A stretch of DNA of 47,511 nt from the IMG/VR virus record IMGVR_UViG_2541047920_000001; one strand, given 5' to 3'. The notes beneath the pieces were generated by a model. The model had not been told where the DNA came from, ran no database searches, and saw only the letters and a list, made by a program, of their open reading frames with translations. This document shows, in pieces, positions 39,706 to 47,511 of the stretch; the first letter of the stretch is position 1, and each line of letters starts with the position of its first letter. This DNA is from a virus (taxonomy: Duplodnaviria; Heunggongvirae; Uroviricota; Caudoviricetes). The position numbers and the translations under genes are program-made.

Positions 39706-40305
39706 ATGCGTAAAGTTTGTGCCGCCATTTTTTCCGCAGCCATTTGTCTGGCCGTATCCGGTGCGCCTGCATGGGCATCTGAACATCAGTCCACGCTGAG
39801 CGCGGGGTATCTTCATGCCTCGACGAACGTTCCCGGCAGCGATGATCTGAACGGGATTAACGTGAAATACCGTTATGAGTTTACGGACACACTGGGGATG
39901 GTGACGTCATTCAGCTATGCAGGAGACAAGAATCGCCAGCTTACCCGTTACAGCGATACCCGCTGGCATGAAGATTCCGTGCGTAACCGCTGGTTCAGCG
40001 TGATGGTGGGGCCGTCTGTGCGCGTGAATGAATGGTTCAGCGCGTATGCGATGGCGGGTATGGCTTACAGCCGTGTTTCGACTTTCTCCGGAGATTATAT
40101 CCGCGTAACTGACAACAAGGGGAAAACGCACGATGTGCTGACCGGAAGTGATGACGGTCGCCACAGCGACACGTCTCTGGCATGGGGGGCTGGCGTGCAG
40201 TTTAACCCGACCGAATCCGTGGCCATTGATATTGCTTATGAAGGTTCCGGCAGTGGCGACTGGCGCACTGACGGTTTCATCGTTGGTGTCGGTTATAAAT
40301 TCTGA
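39706..40305 (+). CDS. lom: Lom-like outer-membrane beta-barrel protein (Ail/PagC/OmpX family)
   Basis: 199 aa with signal peptide and C-terminal …GVGYKF; own terminators on both sides (moron). Confidence 0.8.
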
Positions 40306-40369: not shown

Positions 40370-42775
40370 ATGGCAGCAGTAAAAATCTCAGGTGTGCTGA
40401 AAGATGGTGCGGGAAAACCAATACAGAACTGCACTATTCAACTGAAGGCAAAGCGTAACAGCACCACGGTACTGGTCAACACAGTGGCCTCTGAAAATCC
40501 GGATGAAGCCGGGCGTTACAGCATGGATGTTGAGTATGGCCAGTACAGCGTCACCCTGCTGGTTGAAGGTTTTCCGCCTTCACATGCCGGAACCATTACC
40601 GTCTATGAAGGTTCCAGACCAGGTACGCTGAATGATTTTCTCGGTGCCATGACGGAAGATGATGTCATGCCGGAGGCATTGCGTCGTTTTGAGGAAATGG
40701 TGGAAGAAGCGGCACGCAACGCTGAAGCCGCCTCTCAGAGCGCAGCGGCGGCAAAGAAATCCGAAACTGCAGCGGCATCATCGAAGAACGCGGCGAAAAC
40801 CTCAGAAACGAATGCAGCTAACAGCGCACAGGCGGCAGCGGCCTCGCAGACTGCATCGGCAAACTCCGCAACAGCAGCTAAAAAATCAGAAACCAACGCG
40901 AAAAATAGCGAGACAGCCGCAACGACAAGCGAAACCAACGCAAAGTCCAGCCAGACGGCAGCGAAGACCAGCGAAACGAATGCTAAAGCCAGTGAAACTG
41001 CAGCAAAAAACAGCCAGGTTTCAGCAGCCCAAAGCGAGAGCGCGGCAGCCGGTTCTGCGACTTCAGCAGCTGGATCAGCAACTGCTGCGGCTAACAGCCA
41101 GAAAGCTGCGAAGACGAGTGAAACTAACGCAAAGTCCAGCCAGACGGCAGCGAAGACCAGCGAAACGAATGCCAAAGCCAGTGAAACTGCGGCGAAAAGC
41201 AGTCAGGATGCAGCGGCCCAAAGCGAGAGTGCCGCAGCCAGTTCTGCAAGCGCGGCGGCTGCTTCTGCCACTGCATCAGCTAACAGTCAAAAAGCAGCAA
41301 AAACCAGTGAAACCAACGCAAAGGCGAGCGAGACTGCGGCGGCGAACTCGGCGCAAGCATCGGCAGCAAGCCAGACAGCAGCTAAAGCAAGTGAAGACGC
41401 AGCCAGAGAGTATGCAAGCCAGGCAGCGGAGCCGTATAAACAAGTTTTGCAGCCGTTGCCCGATGTGTGGATACCGTTTAATGATTCACTGGATATGATT
41501 ACGGGCTTTTCGCCATCATATAAAAAAATTGTTATTGGCGACGATGAAATAACAATGCCTGGCGACAAGATTGTAAAGTTTAAACGCGCATCGAAAGCAA
41601 CTTACATTAATAAATCTGGTGTGCTGACAGAGGCTGCCATTGACGAGCCACGATTTGAACGTGATGGCCTGCTTATTGAGGGGCAAAGAACTAACCTGCT
41701 AATCAATTCAACAAATCCGACTAAATGGAACAAGTCGTCAAATATGATCTTAAGTGCATCAGGTGTAGATGATTTCGGATTCCAGTACGCAAAATTTACA
41801 TTAAAACCAGAAATGGTAGGGCAAATTTCAGCGATTAACATAGTAACCGTTTCCGGCAGTAAAGGTTTTGATGTAACAGGCGGAGAAAAGTATGTAACCA
41901 TATCATGCAGGGTGCAAAGTGGCACTCCAAATTTAAGATGCCGATTACGATTTGAAAACTATGATGGTTCTACCTACACATTCTTAGGTGACGCTTACTT
42001 AAATACGACAGATTTATCTATTGATAAGACGGGTGGTGCCGCTAATCGCATTACTGCAAGAGCTGTTAAAGATGAAGCAAGCAAATGGATCTTTTTTGAG
42101 GCGACAATTAAGGCACTTGATACAGAAAATATGATAGGTGGAATGGTTCAGTATGCCCCGGCAAAAGGAGTGGGCACTGGCGCGGATGATTATATTTATA
42201 TTGCGACCCCTCAAGTTGAAGGTGGGGCATGCGCTTCATCGTTTATTATAACAGGCGCATCCCCTGTAACACGCGCCAGCGATATTGTAACGGTCCCCAT
42301 TTCTCTAAATTGGTGCAATCCCGCTATTAGTTCATTAGCAGAAGTTAATACCAATTGGGATGAATCGCCAAACAAAGAAGGTAGCGCACGTATTCTTAAT
42401 ATTTCCACTACGGGAGATACAACTGAAATTGCAGATGAAAGTTATATGTATTTGGGGTATACATCTTTGGGAGCACGCGCAATCATTACAAATGGTAAAG
42501 GCACTAAAATAGAATATAAAAGCGTTATAGAACGACCAGAGAGAAAAAGCATTATCGGCTTTAGATTCACAGAAAGTCGAGAATTGTGTGTTGTGGTTAA
42601 CGGTAATATTGGTGCTAAGGTAGTTTCTCCTTATAAAAAACACAAATATACAGGAGGCTTCATTAATATTGGTGGTCAATCATCATCCGGCAACCGTCAC
42701 CTATTTGGACACGTTCGAAATCTGCGTATTTGGCACAAGGCATTGACTGATGCTCAGATGGGGGAGTCAATCTAA
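40370..42775 (+). CDS. Side tail fibre protein (Stf-like) with repeat-rich shaft and distinct low-GC C-terminal receptor-binding module
   Basis: About 801 aa; N-terminus matches lambda Stf (MAVKISGVLKDGAGKPIQNCTIQLKA…); central 14-residue KTSETNAK(A/S)SETAA-type repeats; last about 400 aa AT-rich, ending in a LamG-like …LFGHVRNLRIWHKAL… segment. Confidence 0.8.
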   Translation: MAAVKISGVLKDGAGKPIQNCTIQLKAKRNSTTVLVNTVASENPDEAGRYSMDVEYGQYSVTLLVEGFPPSHAGTITVYEGSRPGTLNDFLGAMTEDDVMPEALRRFEEMVEEAARNAEAASQSAAAAKKSETAAASSKNAAKTSETNAANSAQAAAASQTASANSATAAKKSETNAKNSETAATTSETNAKSSQTAAKTSETNAKASETAAKNSQVSAAQSESAAAGSATSAAGSATAAANSQKAAKTSETNAKSSQTAAKTSETNAKASETAAKSSQDAAAQSESAAASSASAAAASATASANSQKAAKTSETNAKASETAAANSAQASAASQTAAKASEDAAREYASQAAEPYKQVLQPLPDVWIPFNDSLDMITGFSPSYKKIVIGDDEITMPGDKIVKFKRASKATYINKSGVLTEAAIDEPRFERDGLLIEGQRTNLLINSTNPTKWNKSSNMILSASGVDDFGFQYAKFTLKPEMVGQISAINIVTVSGSKGFDVTGGEKYVTISCRVQSGTPNLRCRLRFENYDGSTYTFLGDAYLNTTDLSIDKTGGAANRITARAVKDEASKWIFFEATIKALDTENMIGGMVQYAPAKGVGTGADDYIYIATPQVEGGACASSFIITGASPVTRASDIVTVPISLNWCNPAISSLAEVNTNWDESPNKEGSARILNISTTGDTTEIADESYMYLGYTSLGARAIITNGKGTKIEYKSVIERPERKSIIGFRFTESRELCVVVNGNIGAKVVSPYKKHKYTGGFINIGGQSSSGNRHLFGHVRNLRIWHKALTDAQMGESI
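40770..41400 (+). repeat. Imperfect tandem coding repeats (about 42 bp units) within the stf shaft
   Basis: Repeated units such as …gcgaagaccagcgaaacgaatgc(t/c)aaagccagtgaaactgc… seen many times; also generates spurious alternative-frame ORFs. Confidence 0.7.
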
Positions 42776-43056
42776 TGAAAGATTTAACACTCAAATTTGC
42801 CGACAGGGCCGACTTTTCGGCCTTTATGGGAAGTATTGGCTATTATAATGACGAGTCGATGCAGGATGATATTCTGATTGATGTGATAGGTAACGTGTAC
42901 AAAGAAACCGGAGAGCTGACTGAAGATGGCGAACCGGTATGTGTTAAGGAAGATGGATATTTTGTAAACGTGCGCATTATTAAGGATACGCAAATATCGT
43001 CATTATTCGATGAATACGCGGTTGCTGTTGAGCATCAACTTCGTGGCTGGATGTGA
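42775..43056 (+). CDS. Hypothetical acidic protein downstream of stf (possible fibre accessory or chaperone)
   Basis: 93-aa ORF whose start overlaps the stf stop (TAATG); low GC; no similarity to Tfa noted. Confidence 0.45.
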   Translation: MKDLTLKFADRADFSAFMGSIGYYNDESMQDDILIDVIGNVYKETGELTEDGEPVCVKEDGYFVNVRIIKDTQISSLFDEYAVAVEHQLRGWM

Positions 43057-43065
43057 GGTAGAGAA

Positions 43066-43770
43066 ATGGCTACATCAACAGTAATTCCGGGAGACATCAC
43101 CACGCTGAAGGGAGATGTTAGTAAAGCAAAGGAAGATATTTCCTCTATTAACGGAAAAGTATCAACGCTTCAGACTGATATGGCCAGTGCAAAGCAGGAT
43201 ATCAGCACCAGATACACAAAAACTGAAGTTGATAATAAGCTGAAAAACAAAGTGGAAGTGAACGATCTGGAAAGTGGTCGTTATGGCGGAGATTTTTACC
43301 CGCTGACTGGCCGTGAAGCGTTTTATTTATGGGGATTGGGCACAACTACAGCGGCGGCAAATCTTTATCTTAATCCTGACCCTGCAATTTCGTCTGTGCT
43401 GCGGTCAACATCGTCTATCCGCTATAAACATTCAGTAGAGACGATAGATTCAGAGCACGCCGATCTCATTTTCAGGATGCGCCCTGTGTGGTACAGGTCG
43501 CAATGCGAAAATGACAGGCGTGACTGGGGATTCTATGGATTGATTGCCGAGGAAGTTGGAGAAATTGCCCCTCAGTTTGTTCACTGGCGACCAGCCAACG
43601 AAGATGATGCACCGGAAACCATTTCCAGCAATGGCCTTGTTGCCGAAGGTGTAATGTACGAACGTCTGGTTGTTCCACTGATTCACCATATCCAGAAGCT
43701 GACTGAAAGAGTTGATGAACTTGAGTCAGAATTAAAGTTGTTATCCGTTTCCCGAAGCGATATCGGATAA
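43066..43770 (+). CDS. Coiled-coil protein with C-terminal S74-type intramolecular-chaperone (auto-processing) domain motif
   Basis: 234 aa; C-terminal …SSIRYKHSVETID…RMRPVWYRSQ…WGFYGLIAEEVGEIAPQFV…ELESELKLL follows the S-x-R-x-K … RPV.Y … G.IAEEV pattern of tail-fibre/endosialidase C-terminal chaperone domains. Confidence 0.5.
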   Translation: MATSTVIPGDITTLKGDVSKAKEDISSINGKVSTLQTDMASAKQDISTRYTKTEVDNKLKNKVEVNDLESGRYGGDFYPLTGREAFYLWGLGTTTAAANLYLNPDPAISSVLRSTSSIRYKHSVETIDSEHADLIFRMRPVWYRSQCENDRRDWGFYGLIAEEVGEIAPQFVHWRPANEDDAPETISSNGLVAEGVMYERLVVPLIHHIQKLTERVDELESELKLLSVSRSDIG

Positions 43771-43780
43771 AGGAGGCGTA

Positions 43781-44074
43781 ATGGATATAACACCTTTCCT
43801 TCATGCACTTTGTGCTGTGGCTGCGCAGGTACTGGTTGGTCTTTTTACCGGAAACTGGGCTTACGGGGCGATAGCTGGTTGTACGTTCTTCATTGCGCGT
43901 GAACATACCCAGGCAGAATATCGCTGGATTGAAATGTTCGGGCATGGCAAGCGTATGAATATGCCGTGGTGGGGCGGTTTTGATCCGCGTGCGTGGGATG
44001 TGGCAAGCCTGATGGATTTTGCTGTGCCGGTGGTGGCGTGTCTGCTGGTCTGGCTGTTGGTTAATCGTGGGTGA
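43781..44074 (+). CDS. Small integral membrane protein (hypothetical; candidate moron)
   Basis: 97 aa with two or three hydrophobic segments; AGGAGG RBS; host-like GC. Confidence 0.5.
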   Translation: MDITPFLHALCAVAAQVLVGLFTGNWAYGAIAGCTFFIAREHTQAEYRWIEMFGHGKRMNMPWWGGFDPRAWDVASLMDFAVPVVACLLVWLLVNRG

Positions 44075-44084
44075 AAAAAGGTGA

Positions 44085-44204
44085 GCTGTATATGCAACGG
44101 AGGAAGAAACCTCGTTGCGGGAAGCCTGGAAGAAGTATCGGGTGTTGCTGAACCGTGTTGATACGTCAACTGCACAGGATATTGAATGGCCAGCACTGCC
44201 GTAG
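44085..44204 (+). pseudogene. 3' remnant of a tail fibre assembly (tfa) gene
   Basis: Open frame without a start codon encoding …[34 protein letters not shown], the conserved C-terminal end of Tfa proteins; begins directly after a stop codon. Confidence 0.6.
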
Positions 44205-44301
44205 GGTAAAACATATAAATTCTATAATTAGATGTATCTTTCCATTTACGGCAAGGAAGGGGGCTTGGAAGACGTAAGGCATCTCACACCGAGATTATTT
44301 T

Positions 44302-44892
44302 TTATATGTCAGGTGTCTGAAGTTTTGCTTTGGCTCTTAAAATGGTTTGCCGCGAGGTTTTGAATTCCCGGGCAATGGCACTTATACTTACACCTGACTT
44401 AATCCGTTCGAATACCACCTGTTTCTGTTCTTCATTTAACACAGGTGGTCGACCAAAACGTTTCCCTGCGCCCCGGGCTCTTACTATCCCGGAATGAGTG
44501 CGTTCAAGTAAAAGGTCTCGTTCAAATTCAGCGACTGCTGAAATTACTTGCATCATCATTTTTCCTGTTGGACTGGTCAGGTCAATGCCCCCCAATGCTA
44601 AGCAATGCACTCTGATACCTGTTTCGGTCAGTTGTTCCACTGTTTTCCTGATATCCATTGCATTACAACCAAGGCGATCCAGTTTTGTCACAATCAATTG
44701 ATCACCACATTTCAGGCGAGCAAGCAACCGGTTAAAACCAGGACGCTCACTGGTTGCTGCTGAGCCGCTAATGTGTTCTTCGATTATTTGCTGAGGTTTG
44801 ATTTTAAAACCTGCACTTTCGATTTCCCGGCGTTGATTTTCGGTGGTCTGATCCAGCGTTGATATCCGACAGTAAGCAAAAATTCGAGACAT
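44302..44892 (-). CDS. pin: Pin-type serine DNA invertase (Hin/Gin/Pin family)
   Basis: 196 aa; N-terminal catalytic …[11 protein letters not shown]… (Ser nucleophile context), C-terminal HTH; adjacent to tail-fibre genes. Confidence 0.9.
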
Positions 44893-45208
44893 AGTGAGAC
44901 TCTATACGAAATTGGTGTTCATATCATAATGCATCTCAGAAAATAATTTTGATTATTTTTGTGCATGTTTGTATGTACACGTTCGAAAATAAACGAATGC
45001 GTATGCAACCCCGTAATTTTGGTGAGACCCAAAATCGATTTTGTGAAAAATGGCTTTAACTCGGTTTGTTTTTCGAGTTCCGGGCGGACTCAAGGAAGAA
45101 GAATAGTGTTGCGTGTTATTTTAACCAGATTTCAAGTTGTTTGGTCGTGGAAAAGTGGAGCAAAATGTTGTTAAAGTGGAAAAATGATAAAAAAGTAAGT
45201 TTATTATA

Positions 45209-45442
45209 TTACATTTTACCATTTAAATTTTGGTTGTCTTTAAGAACTGATATCGCTGTTTGTAATAATTCTTTGTTATCCAGCCATGATTTTTTCTTTA
45301 TGTTTCCTTCAATGTAATCAAGCAATGTTCTGGTATTGATAGGTCTTCCCTGTTTTGCTACTTCCACTACAGCATCCCCTAGGATAATTCTGACTTCAGG
45401 AAGCTGCGCAGGGAACCACTTTAGGGTGTCTTTTGATTTCAT
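45209..45442 (-). CDS. ydfK: YdfK-like cold-shock-inducible small protein
   Basis: 77 aa from MKSKDTLKWFPAQLPEVRIILGDAVVEVAKQGRPINTRTLLDYIEGNIKKKSWLDNKELLQ…. Confidence 0.7.
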   Translation of the reverse strand: MKSKDTLKWFPAQLPEVRIILGDAVVEVAKQGRPINTRTLLDYIEGNIKKKSWLDNKELLQTAISVLKDNQNLNGKM

Positions 45443-46227
45443 GAATATATTCCTTAAAATATTATTGATTTTCATTGCGATATTGTATGTCTGATTCAGG
45501 ATATGTTGACTTATACATCGGTTTTGTCTGGGTTATTGGATATGCCAATCCCTAATTTTATTAGAGCATGACTAAAAATGCTGAATATGATAAGGAGCGA
45601 AGTGATTATCAGTATGCTGTTCATATAGCCTCGAATTAGTAATGTGTTATATATGATATAGTTGACAATTTTTATCCTGGGTGTTCTTAAAGTTCGTAGA
45701 TAAACATTGTCGTTTCAGGTATACAGGAATGCTAACAGATGGCGGCAAAAATCAGGCGGTTTATGGCGCAAGCTGAAGTGGCAACTGCAAACTATCTTAT
45801 GCAGAGACTCTACACGGATTGGGTTTAAAAGTATACATAGATAACAGTTTTTATCTGAAGAAGAAAAATATCAAGGTGATATAGCCTATATGCCTTTGAT
45901 GCGGAGGAATGAATGTGATGGGAGTGATGTATCTGAATAGTTGAAAAACCGCAGACACGCCTTATGCAAGAACGTGCTGCGGTTGGCTGGTAAATTTTTC
46001 GATAGTGCGAGTATTGAATGATTTCCAGCCGTTATTGATTTTACGCGTAACTCCATGAAAAAACTACTTATCTGTTGAGGAGTTTTTTTGGGGCATATAT
46101 GGGACAGAAATAGGCCCCAGATAGACACTGAGATCGAACTTAGGATGCTTTTTAAAAAATGCAACTATCTGAAAAAACCTAGAAAACGCCAAGGAAACCA
46201 CAGGATGGGAAAAAACACCTGTGAATT

Positions 46228-47511
46228 ATGGACTTCCAGTTATATTCGCTCGGCGCAGCGTTAGTGTTTCATGAAATATTTTTTCCTGAATCATCAACGG
46301 CAATGGCGTTAATTCTGGCAATGGGAACCTATGGTGCAGGTTATGTGGCACGTATTGTCGGAGCATTTATTTTCGGCAAAATGGGCGACAGAATAGGGCG
46401 TAAAAAAGTGCTCTTTATTACCATCACCATGATGGGGATCTGTACCACCTTAATTGGTGTGTTACCGACTTATGCACAAATTGGTGTTTTTGCCCCCATC
46501 TTGCTGGTGACGCTGCGTATTATTCAGGGGTTGGGTGCAGGTGCGGAAATTTCCGGTGCCGGTACGATGCTGGCGGAATATGCGCCAAAAGGTAAGCGCG
46601 GAATTATCTCCTCATTTGTGGCTATGGGAACTAACTGCGGAACCCTGAGCGCAACGGCAATCTGGGCCTTTATGTTCTTCATTCTCAGTAAAGAGGAACT
46701 GCTGGCGTGGGGATGGCGTATACCTTTCCTGGCGAGCGTTGTCGTGATGGTCTTTGCTATCTGGTTGCGTATGAATCTGAAAGAAAGCCCGGTCTTTGAG
46801 AAGGTTAACGACAGCAACCAACCGACAGCAAAACCTGCACCTGCTGGTAGCATGTTCCAGAGCAAATCCTTCTGGCTGGCAACAGGGCTGCGTTTTGGTC
46901 AGGCTGGTAACTCAGGTTTAATTCAGACTTTCCTTGCAGGCTATTTAGTGCAGACGTTATTGTTTAACAAAGCAATTCCAACAGATGCATTGATGATCAG
47001 TTCGATTCTCGGCTTTATGACCATTCCGTTCCTTGGTTGGTTATCCGATAAAATTGGTCGCCGGATCCCGTATATTATTATGAATACCTCTGCGATTGTG
47101 CTGGCATGGCCAATGCTTTCTATCATCGTAGATAAAAGCTATGCCCCGAGCACCATTATGGTTGCACTGATTGTGATTCATAACTGTGCGGTGCTTGGAT
47201 TATTTGCTCTGGAAAACATTACCATGGCAGAAATGTTCGGCTGTAAAAACCGCTTTACCCGAATGGCTATTTCTAAAGAAATTGGTGGTCTTATCGCTTC
47301 CGGTTTTGGTCCTATCCTGGCGGGGATTTTCTGCACCATGACGGAATCCTGGTATCCGATCGCCATTATGATCATGGCATATTCTGTGATTGGTTTAATC
47401 TCTGCGCTGAAAATGCCAGAAGTGAAAGACCGTGATTTAAGTGCGCTGGAAGACGCCGCAGAAGATCAACCACATGTTGTAAGAGCTGCACAACCGTCCA
47501 GAAGTCTGTAA
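46228..47511 (+). CDS. ydfJ: MFS transporter (MHS family, YdfJ-like), apparently lacking the first transmembrane segment; host gene at prophage boundary
   Basis: 427 aa; MFS signature GxxxDRIGRKK occurs at residue about 52, i.e. about 35-40 residues earlier than expected, consistent with 5' truncation; 12-TM-like hydrophobic profile otherwise. Confidence 0.75.
   Translation: MDFQLYSLGAALVFHEIFFPESSTAMALILAMGTYGAGYVARIVGAFIFGKMGDRIGRKKVLFITITMMGICTTLIGVLPTYAQIGVFAPILLVTLRIIQGLGAGAEISGAGTMLAEYAPKGKRGIISSFVAMGTNCGTLSATAIWAFMFFILSKEELLAWGWRIPFLASVVVMVFAIWLRMNLKESPVFEKVNDSNQPTAKPAPAGSMFQSKSFWLATGLRFGQAGNSGLIQTFLAGYLVQTLLFNKAIPTDALMISSILGFMTIPFLGWLSDKIGRRIPYIIMNTSAIVLAWPMLSIIVDKSYAPSTIMVALIVIHNCAVLGLFALENITMAEMFGCKNRFTRMAISKEIGGLIASGFGPILAGIFCTMTESWYPIAIMIMAYSVIGLISALKMPEVKDRDLSALEDAAEDQPHVVRAAQPSRSL

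Follow-up and report, generated by a model that had tools for sequence, protein, structure and literature searches.

Why does a gene called pinQ, annotated as encoding a DNA invertase, stand beside a remnant of the tail-fibre assembly gene tfa in a prophage that offers it no segment to invert? The stretch of DNA examined here (IMG/VR virus record IMGVR_UViG_2541047920_000001; 47,511 nucleotides, hereafter the window) contains the right end of a lambdoid prophage in ydfJ, which is the Qin attachment site, and the locus in question lies at that end. The gene itself is known and ordinary, being present in about half of complete Escherichia coli genomes and never with a local invertible segment. 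A preliminary description of the window read it as an orphan Pin invertase left behind by a tail-fibre switch. Here, we report that positions 44259-45092 are very likely an 834-bp fossil of an ISSba14-like transposon of the Tn3 family, in which pinQ is the relic of the resolvase gene tnpR, was never part of a local fibre switch, and would encode a weak recombinase at best.

The preliminary description was right that the gene is a complete open reading frame (ORF) on the minus strand. Its product matches the Pfam domains Resolvase (2.5e-36) and HTH_7 (3.8e-11) and is 100% identical to PinR and 99% identical to PinQ of E. coli K-12. PinR (b1374, Rac prophage) and PinQ (b1545, Qin prophage) are the same gene, with the same neighbours (ydfK/ynaE and ynfT/ynaM) and in the same convergent spot after tfa; we use the name pinQ, which is also the name given by PGAP to the identical recombinase gene in E. 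coli GABEEC10. Assignment of the product to the Pin-type invertases did not survive comparison. The invertases PinE, Gin, and Cin are 75 to 82% identical among themselves, and PinQ shares only 39%, 36%, and 37% identity with them, respectively (33% with γδ resolvase). Because PinQ is as far from PinE, Gin, and Cin as γδ resolvase is (38 to 39%), it falls outside the Din family, and on these identities it is not an invertase of the Gin/Cin/Pin/Hin type. The best match among solved structures was Gin (E value, 2.7e-29), and no NCBIfam family was reached at its cut-off. Beyond the PinQ/PinR cluster, the nearest relatives in protein databases are 78 to 86% identical, and many are plasmid borne; the plasmid collection included 163 records with a copy at 80 to 90% identity and 1,490 with a copy at 60 to 80%. 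PinQ is 84% identical to the TnpR of an E. coli plasmid transposon and 79% identical to that of ISSba14.

On plasmids, the PinQ-like recombinase (196 amino acids) is divergent from a Tn3-family transposase (PF01526 at 1.5e-123, plus DUF4158; 994 amino acids when intact). The two genes form a 3.8-kb unit bounded by perfect inverted repeats (38 bp-plus) that start GGGGTCCGCTTGGAAAACGGAAAATATCCCACGCTAAG. Such elements are carried by Shewanella baltica pSbal02, where PGAP labels the copy "ISSba14 family", and by IncF, IncI, and IncK plasmids of E. coli, and a related element was found in 1,897 plasmid records. Between tnpA and tnpR lie dyads built on TGT(C/A)CGAAA, with a spacer of 8 bp in site I and 14 bp in site II. 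These resolution-site (res) dyads are kept between the E. coli and Shewanella elements, with site II changed symmetrically (TCCGAAA...TTTCGGA versus TACGAAT...TTTCGTA). The order tnpA-res-tnpR is the classic Tn3 arrangement, as in Tn3 and γδ.

The same arrangement, less the transposase gene, is seen in the window. A blastn alignment of the plasmid element with window positions 44257-44949 gave 83% identity over 698 bp, running from res through the gene and ending at the outer GGGG of the inverted repeat. A degenerate terminal repeat of the tnpR-side end (IRR) adjoins the gene on one side and a decayed res region adjoins it on the other (Table 1). Relic res half-sites match 5 to 8 of the 9 consensus positions (hand count). 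A 20-bp insertion in site I was considered and dropped after more lineages gave a collinear alignment. About 40 bp beyond site I, a candidate repeat of the tnpA-side end (IRL) is found in the orientation and position expected for the transposon's other end; over 45046-45089, it is identical to the transposon left end at 29 of 44 positions (hand count), a score reached by 2 to 3 of 300 shuffles. Directly outside the two repeats stand copies of AGGAA, which extend to CAAGGAAG (44252-44259 and 45091-45098), and 5 bp is the length of target duplication expected for Tn3-family elements. With the 914-amino-acid TnpA as a query, tblastn found no tnpA remnant in the window, in Rac, in Qin, or in the isolated phages HannyBb and Turner; the element is called a relic because its transposase gene is missing. 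On this comparison of sequences, the part made up of IRR, tnpR, and res is the more secure, and the second repeat and the AGGAA duplication are moderately supported.

Two other prophage lineages (P0008 and P0009; 85 to 86% identical) share both junctions with the window, and since the junctions agree on both sides, a single ancestral insertion is indicated. An ISSba14-like transposon would thus have entered an ancestral lambdoid phage of the Rac/Qin type about 55 bp downstream of tfa. Its transposase gene would have been lost later, leaving one inverted repeat and probably the other, an intact resolvase gene, and a decayed res that would overlap the pinQ promoter region, with the putative AGGAA duplication flanking the whole. 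The P0008 gene (L014, 6001-6591, on an E. coli chromosome) is a mosaic that is mostly near-identical to the tnpR of the plasmid transposon (dS, 0.13) and has Arg at the catalytic position; its last residues and both flanks are of the prophage type. The mosaic suggests that a plasmid-borne transposon has recombined with the prophage relic.

What PinQ can still do is probably limited by a substitution at a catalytic position. Where Tn3 resolvase has its catalytic Arg71, pinQ has TGT (Cys76) and the transposon copies have CGT (Arg). Among 120 homologue cluster representatives, Arg occupies this position in 112 and Cys in 5, the latter being four clusters of the PinQ/PinR type and the P0009 lineage. 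PinQ therefore lacks the complete catalytic set (Tn3 Y6, R8, S10, R68, R71, and others), keeping Y7, R9, S11, D72, and R73; the other residues tested by Olorunniji and Stark, where conserved in the PinQ clade, are all kept. In Tn3 resolvase, the mutants R71A and R71K show no resolution in vivo, and cleavage is reduced about 1,000-fold (PMC2794168). Both changes were made in an activated Tn3 resolvase. With Cys76 as the only exception among the catalytic-site residues of its clade, PinQ should recombine DNA weakly at best. Its recognition helix is almost the same as the TTRQTILRVR of the transposon TnpR. Between the two Cys-bearing prophage lineages, dS is 0.22 and the ratio of nonsynonymous to synonymous substitution (dN/dS) is 0.37; among the transposon copies, dN/dS is 0.08. 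On these ratios, the pinQ ORF is maintained but under relaxed constraint.

Table 1. Features of the pinQ locus and its surroundings (coordinates of the window).
Feature	Position	Strand	Basis or remark
Tail tip protein gene			precedes lom
lom	39706-40305
Side tail fibre gene (stf), 803 aa	40364-42775
Genes of 93, 234, and 97 aa	42775-44074		follow the side tail fibre gene and precede the tfa fragment
tfa 3' remnant, last 37 codons including stop	44094-44204	+	translation; alignment to K-12 tfaQ/tfaR; PGAP pseudogene
"gix-like" sequence of the preliminary description	44100-44125		chance resemblance within tfa coding sequence
AGGAA, left copy of putative 5-bp target-site duplication	44254-44258		directly outside IRR
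Degenerate Tn3-family terminal inverted repeat, tnpR-side end (IRR)	44259-44296	+	26/38 matches by hand count, 3-nt deletion
pinQ, intact 196-aa small serine recombinase, read as relic tnpR	44302-44892	-	complete ORF
Codon 76, TGT (Cys), at the catalytic Arg71 position of Tn3/γδ resolvase	44665-44667	-	alignments to γδ resolvase and Gin
Degenerate res region	44893-45005	-	collinear alignment with two intact elements and two other prophage lineages
res site III	44903-44921
-10 homologue	44920-44932
res site II	44934-44965
res site I	44980-45005
Candidate second terminal inverted repeat, tnpA-side end (IRL)	45046-45092	-	ungapped match to the transposon left end; moderate confidence
AGGAA, right copy of putative target-site duplication	45093-45097		directly outside candidate IRL
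ydfK, then ynfT			follow pinQ
ydfJ, truncated	begins 46228

Reading pinQ as what remains of a Pin/Gin-type fibre switch, its alternative genes and sites deleted and one degenerate gix-like site surviving in the tfa remnant, has an evident appeal: a serine recombinase stands beside tail-fibre genes in Mu, P1, and e14 as well, and a tfa fragment is indeed present here. We consider such an origin highly improbable, first because the proposed site is chance plus normal tfa coding sequence. A half-site matrix was built from gixL/R (Mu), pixL/R (e14), and cixL/R (P1), read from their records, together with the two hix sites. True sites read from records score 29 to 32 bits on this matrix. Positions 44100-44125, in register, score -18.6 bits, and about 7,100 other 26-mers of the window score higher. 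The core of this stretch has 3 mismatches to AAACCNNGGTTT, so it is absent from the matches to that core with ≤2 mismatches, which number 21 in the window against 24.4 expected by chance and are not enriched. Its counterpart in intact tfaQ/tfaR is AGGAAGAAATCTCGTTGCTGGAA, with two further differences, and because the stretch is also present in those intact genes, it is ordinary tfa coding sequence. By both the half-site matrix and the core counts, the resemblance to gix is one of chance.

Nor was a site of this kind found elsewhere. Across the whole 47.5-kb window, the best gix-type 26-mer scored 11.8 bits, equal to the average maximum of shuffled sequence (11.8 ± 2.5), and no gix/pix-type partner site was found. 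A search of 38-47.5 kb for inverted repeats gave chance-level pairs only (longest, 28 nt at 75%) and no pair of the e14 kind, which agrees with the earlier observation that no intact invertible segment is present. A scan of the 47.5-kb window for res-type dyads found no partner sites. The breakpoint within tfa was considered as a site-specific crossover and ruled out, since homology begins at 44092/44093, 20 bp before the supposed centre. Two palindromic stretches upstream of pinQ (45017-45042 and 45058-45079) were rejected as invertase sites, the orientation of their motifs relative to the centre being wrong; the second of these overlaps the candidate IRL. The first, in the 40 bp that separate res site I from the candidate IRL, is made up of two perfect palindromes that overlap, TTTTGGGTCTCACCAAAA and AAAATCGATTTT as read on the minus strand (the sense strand of pinQ), and both are kept in all prophage lineages compared.

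The gene order of the window also differs from that of working switches. In K-12, stf and tfa are full length in both Rac and Qin and are followed by convergent pinR or pinQ and then by ynaE/ydfK and ynaM/ynfT. In two isolated phages, HannyBb and Turner (the latter with Rac-like stf-tfa), the recombinase gene is in the same place, and HannyBb shares 43780-46239 of the window at 99.4% identity, tfa fragment included. No second, inverted set of fibre genes occurs in Rac, Qin, Turner, or HannyBb; even where stf and tfa are intact, the same pinQ layout is found with a single fibre set, and convergent stf-tfa/pinQ without an invertible segment is the standard state. The window likewise has no minus-strand tail-fibre genes between 40.3 and 44.2 kb, as the preliminary description had noted, and the five largest antisense ORFs there have no tail-protein match in PHROGs. 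One antisense ORF (40735-41175, minus strand), in the alanine-rich repeat region of the tail-fibre gene, matched phrog_560 (function unknown) at 9.4e-08, most likely a low-complexity artefact. The switches of e14, Mu, and P1 are built otherwise, with two tfa-type genes meeting 3' to 3' in the middle of the segment and the crossover sites in the fibre genes, so a tfa 3' end belongs mid-segment and not at a crossover site. Comparison with these layouts, the flanking Tn3-family inverted repeat and res relics, and the 36 to 39% identity of PinQ to the Din invertases together remove the ground for an ancestral Pin-controlled switch that was deleted or replaced. Some lambdoid phages, HK225 (JQ086371.1) and mEpX1 (PV340543.1) among them, encode an annotated "DNA invertase" whose identity to PinQ is only about 35%, within the range of Gin and Cin; genuine Din-type fibre switches may therefore occur in this phage group and would show what form an intact switch takes.

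The tfa remnant next to the recombinase gene is real. Nucleotide homology to K-12 tfaQ/tfaR starts at 44093, and in GABEEC10 (100% identical) PGAP calls an incomplete tail-fibre-assembly pseudogene here. Both tfaQ and tfaR of K-12 are full length, whereas the window has no full-length tfa (Caudo_TAP) after stf and retains 111 bp of it, the last 37 codons. Since the pinQ layout is standard, HannyBb has a junction in tfa identical to that of the window, and real switches are built differently, this fragment is the scar of a swap of the tail-fibre module, an event separate from the pinQ insertion, and not a decayed switch. The distal tail-fibre module would have been replaced by the C-terminal part of stf and the three genes that follow it, with the right-hand junction of the replacement falling within tfa at 44092/44093. 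Those genes encode a 93-amino-acid protein (phrog_1361), a 234-amino-acid protein that resembles tail fibres and has an intramolecular chaperone domain (Peptidase_S74), and a 97-amino-acid hydrophobic protein (phrog_1443). This replacement arrangement of stf-C and tfa is found in about 321 of 5,426 complete E. coli genomes. Positions 42700-46300 are 100% identical to GABEEC10 and to two further genomes listed at 100.0%. The 97-amino-acid gene is common to HannyBb and the window, and the HannyBb fibre gene upstream of it is longer. In Turner (L006, 4954-5028), another piece of 75 bp, which matches the tfa 3' end at 84% identity and has the orientation of the real tfa, lies on the far side of pinQ, so that a direct repeat of the tfa end flanks the pinQ block.

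If pinQ has no partner site in cis, any role in recombination would have to be in trans, and the preliminary description's suggestion that the enzyme could act on sites elsewhere matches a published claim. According to Kirigo et al. (Nucleic Acids Research, 2025; PMC12529663), the inverted fraction of the e14 P segment rises from about 30% to 88% when K-12 PinQ is overproduced, this inversion makes a chimeric StfE2 that blocks adsorption of phage T2, and deletion of pinQ sensitises cells to T2, an effect that requires stfP, stfE, and e14; their database searches gave no inversions inside Qin or Rac. They also report that with pinE deleted, and pinQ and pinR present, the P segment is locked. 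A term search of the paper turned up neither a reference to a Tn3 relationship nor a treatment of catalytic residues, and no mutant of the active site. The claim of inversion in trans sits uneasily with Cys76 and with the locking of the segment by pinE deletion.

From such data, PinQ might be taken for a fully competent trans-acting invertase, selected to flip Din-type segments elsewhere, of which the e14 P segment (giving StfE2 and the T2 block) would be one. The inversion seen on overproduction and the deletion phenotype speak for this, the protein encoded in the window has the same sequence as K-12 PinR, and on our reading the half-sites of pix (CTCGAAAACC, for example) are loosely like the half-site of the TnpR clade (TGTCCGAAA). 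We nonetheless hold it to be doubtful, though possible. Cys76 takes the place of the catalytic Arg, the term search of PMC12529663 yielded no catalytic-site mutant, that paper describes the segment as locked without pinE, and resolvase ancestry predicts a need for accessory res sites and not for a Fis enhancer. The pinQ relic is also present in 2,868 of the 5,426 E. coli genomes, against 170 for a K-12-like e14 P segment with pinE (at least 80% query coverage). GABEEC10, the sole 100%-match genome inspected for e14, has a lambdoid prophage with ompC-like porin and iss genes, not e14, at its icd-adjacent site (L016, 2173942-2200000), which is the e14 position in K-12 and the site to which that inspection was confined.

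Several observations weigh against reading 44259-45092 as a transposon fossil with a feeble recombinase. The relic res dyads do not rise above chance on their own score and were identified by collinear homology. Taken alone, the second repeat is weak (29/44; empirical P of about 0.01), and a complete element that was internally deleted is less secure than the part made up of IRR, tnpR, and res. An empty site, with the flanks joined and one AGGAA, had no match in the 5,426 E. coli genomes or in 50,697 phage records. On the side of the enzyme, the Tn3 resolvase R71 mutants are described as "not inert" (PMC2794168), the effect of Arg-to-Cys in PinQ itself is argued by analogy with those mutants, and the 88% inversion given for overproduced PinQ in PMC12529663 argues for real recombinase activity despite Cys76.

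With its helix-turn-helix and Ser11 kept, PinQ should still bind DNA, its own relic res among the targets, and so regulate its own expression. It probably acts today by binding DNA, and its own recombinase activity would be weak or absent. A fuller version, put forward tentatively, is that PinQ is an exapted Tn3-family resolvase (an R71C equivalent) that serves mainly as a sequence-specific DNA-binding autoregulator, or as a modulator that biases PinE inversion or represses genes, with PinE carrying out the strand exchange. PinR has been credited with transcriptional repression in a 2022 preprint (bioRxiv 10.1101/2022.03.29.486199).

Two further roles can be set against this. PinQ might still act as a resolvase or res binder on incoming ISSba14-like transposons and plasmids, resolving cointegrates in trans or interfering with tnpA/tnpR; its recognition helix would suit it to such sites, related elements are present in the 1,897 plasmid records, and the P0008 mosaic implies that the prophage and transposon pools meet and recombine. 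We judge this improbable, as Cys76 speaks against efficient catalysis and it is speculative that a phage would be selected to keep such a function. Alternatively, pinQ could be a functionless, intact-looking hitchhiker on a conserved prophage right end, as its relaxed constraint (dN/dS of 0.37 versus 0.08 in transposon copies), lost catalytic residue, and decayed inverted repeat and res would allow. Against that, the ORF is still full length across lineages at dS of 0.22 to 0.6 with dN/dS of <1, and pinQ is kept in isolated phages and has reported deletion phenotypes (PMC12529663; bioRxiv 10.1101/2022.03.29.486199), so that we regard this, too, as rather unlikely.

PinQ and PinR have been annotated "DNA invertase" for decades and were recently presented as the first recombinase-activated anti-phage system. 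That long-standing annotation looks misleading: no cognate segment has ever been found beside pinQ because the gene is, on the reading preferred here, the fossil of a transposon resolvase and not a Pin-type invertase. The Arg-to-Cys substitution places on the 2025 claim of e14 inversion by PinQ as phage defence a specific qualification that can be put to the test. Literature searches on pinR with tnpR and on ISSba14 gave nothing on a Tn3 origin, which is not proof of its being unpublished; among the searchable literature, the Tn3-type origin and the Cys76 substitution appear unreported.

Set beside known systems, PinQ has the small serine recombinase fold, the C-terminal helix-turn-helix, and the tail-fibre neighbours of the Din invertases (Gin, Cin, PinE, and Hin), but unlike theirs, its surroundings in the window lack 26-bp crossover sites, an invertible segment, and a second fibre set. 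With the tnpR of ISSba14-like elements it has in common a length of 196 amino acids, an inverted repeat right after the stop codon, and, upstream, candidate res dyads; the window differs from those elements in that the transposase gene is gone, the inverted repeats and res are decayed, the catalytic Arg has become Cys76, and the last eight residues of the recombinase are different.

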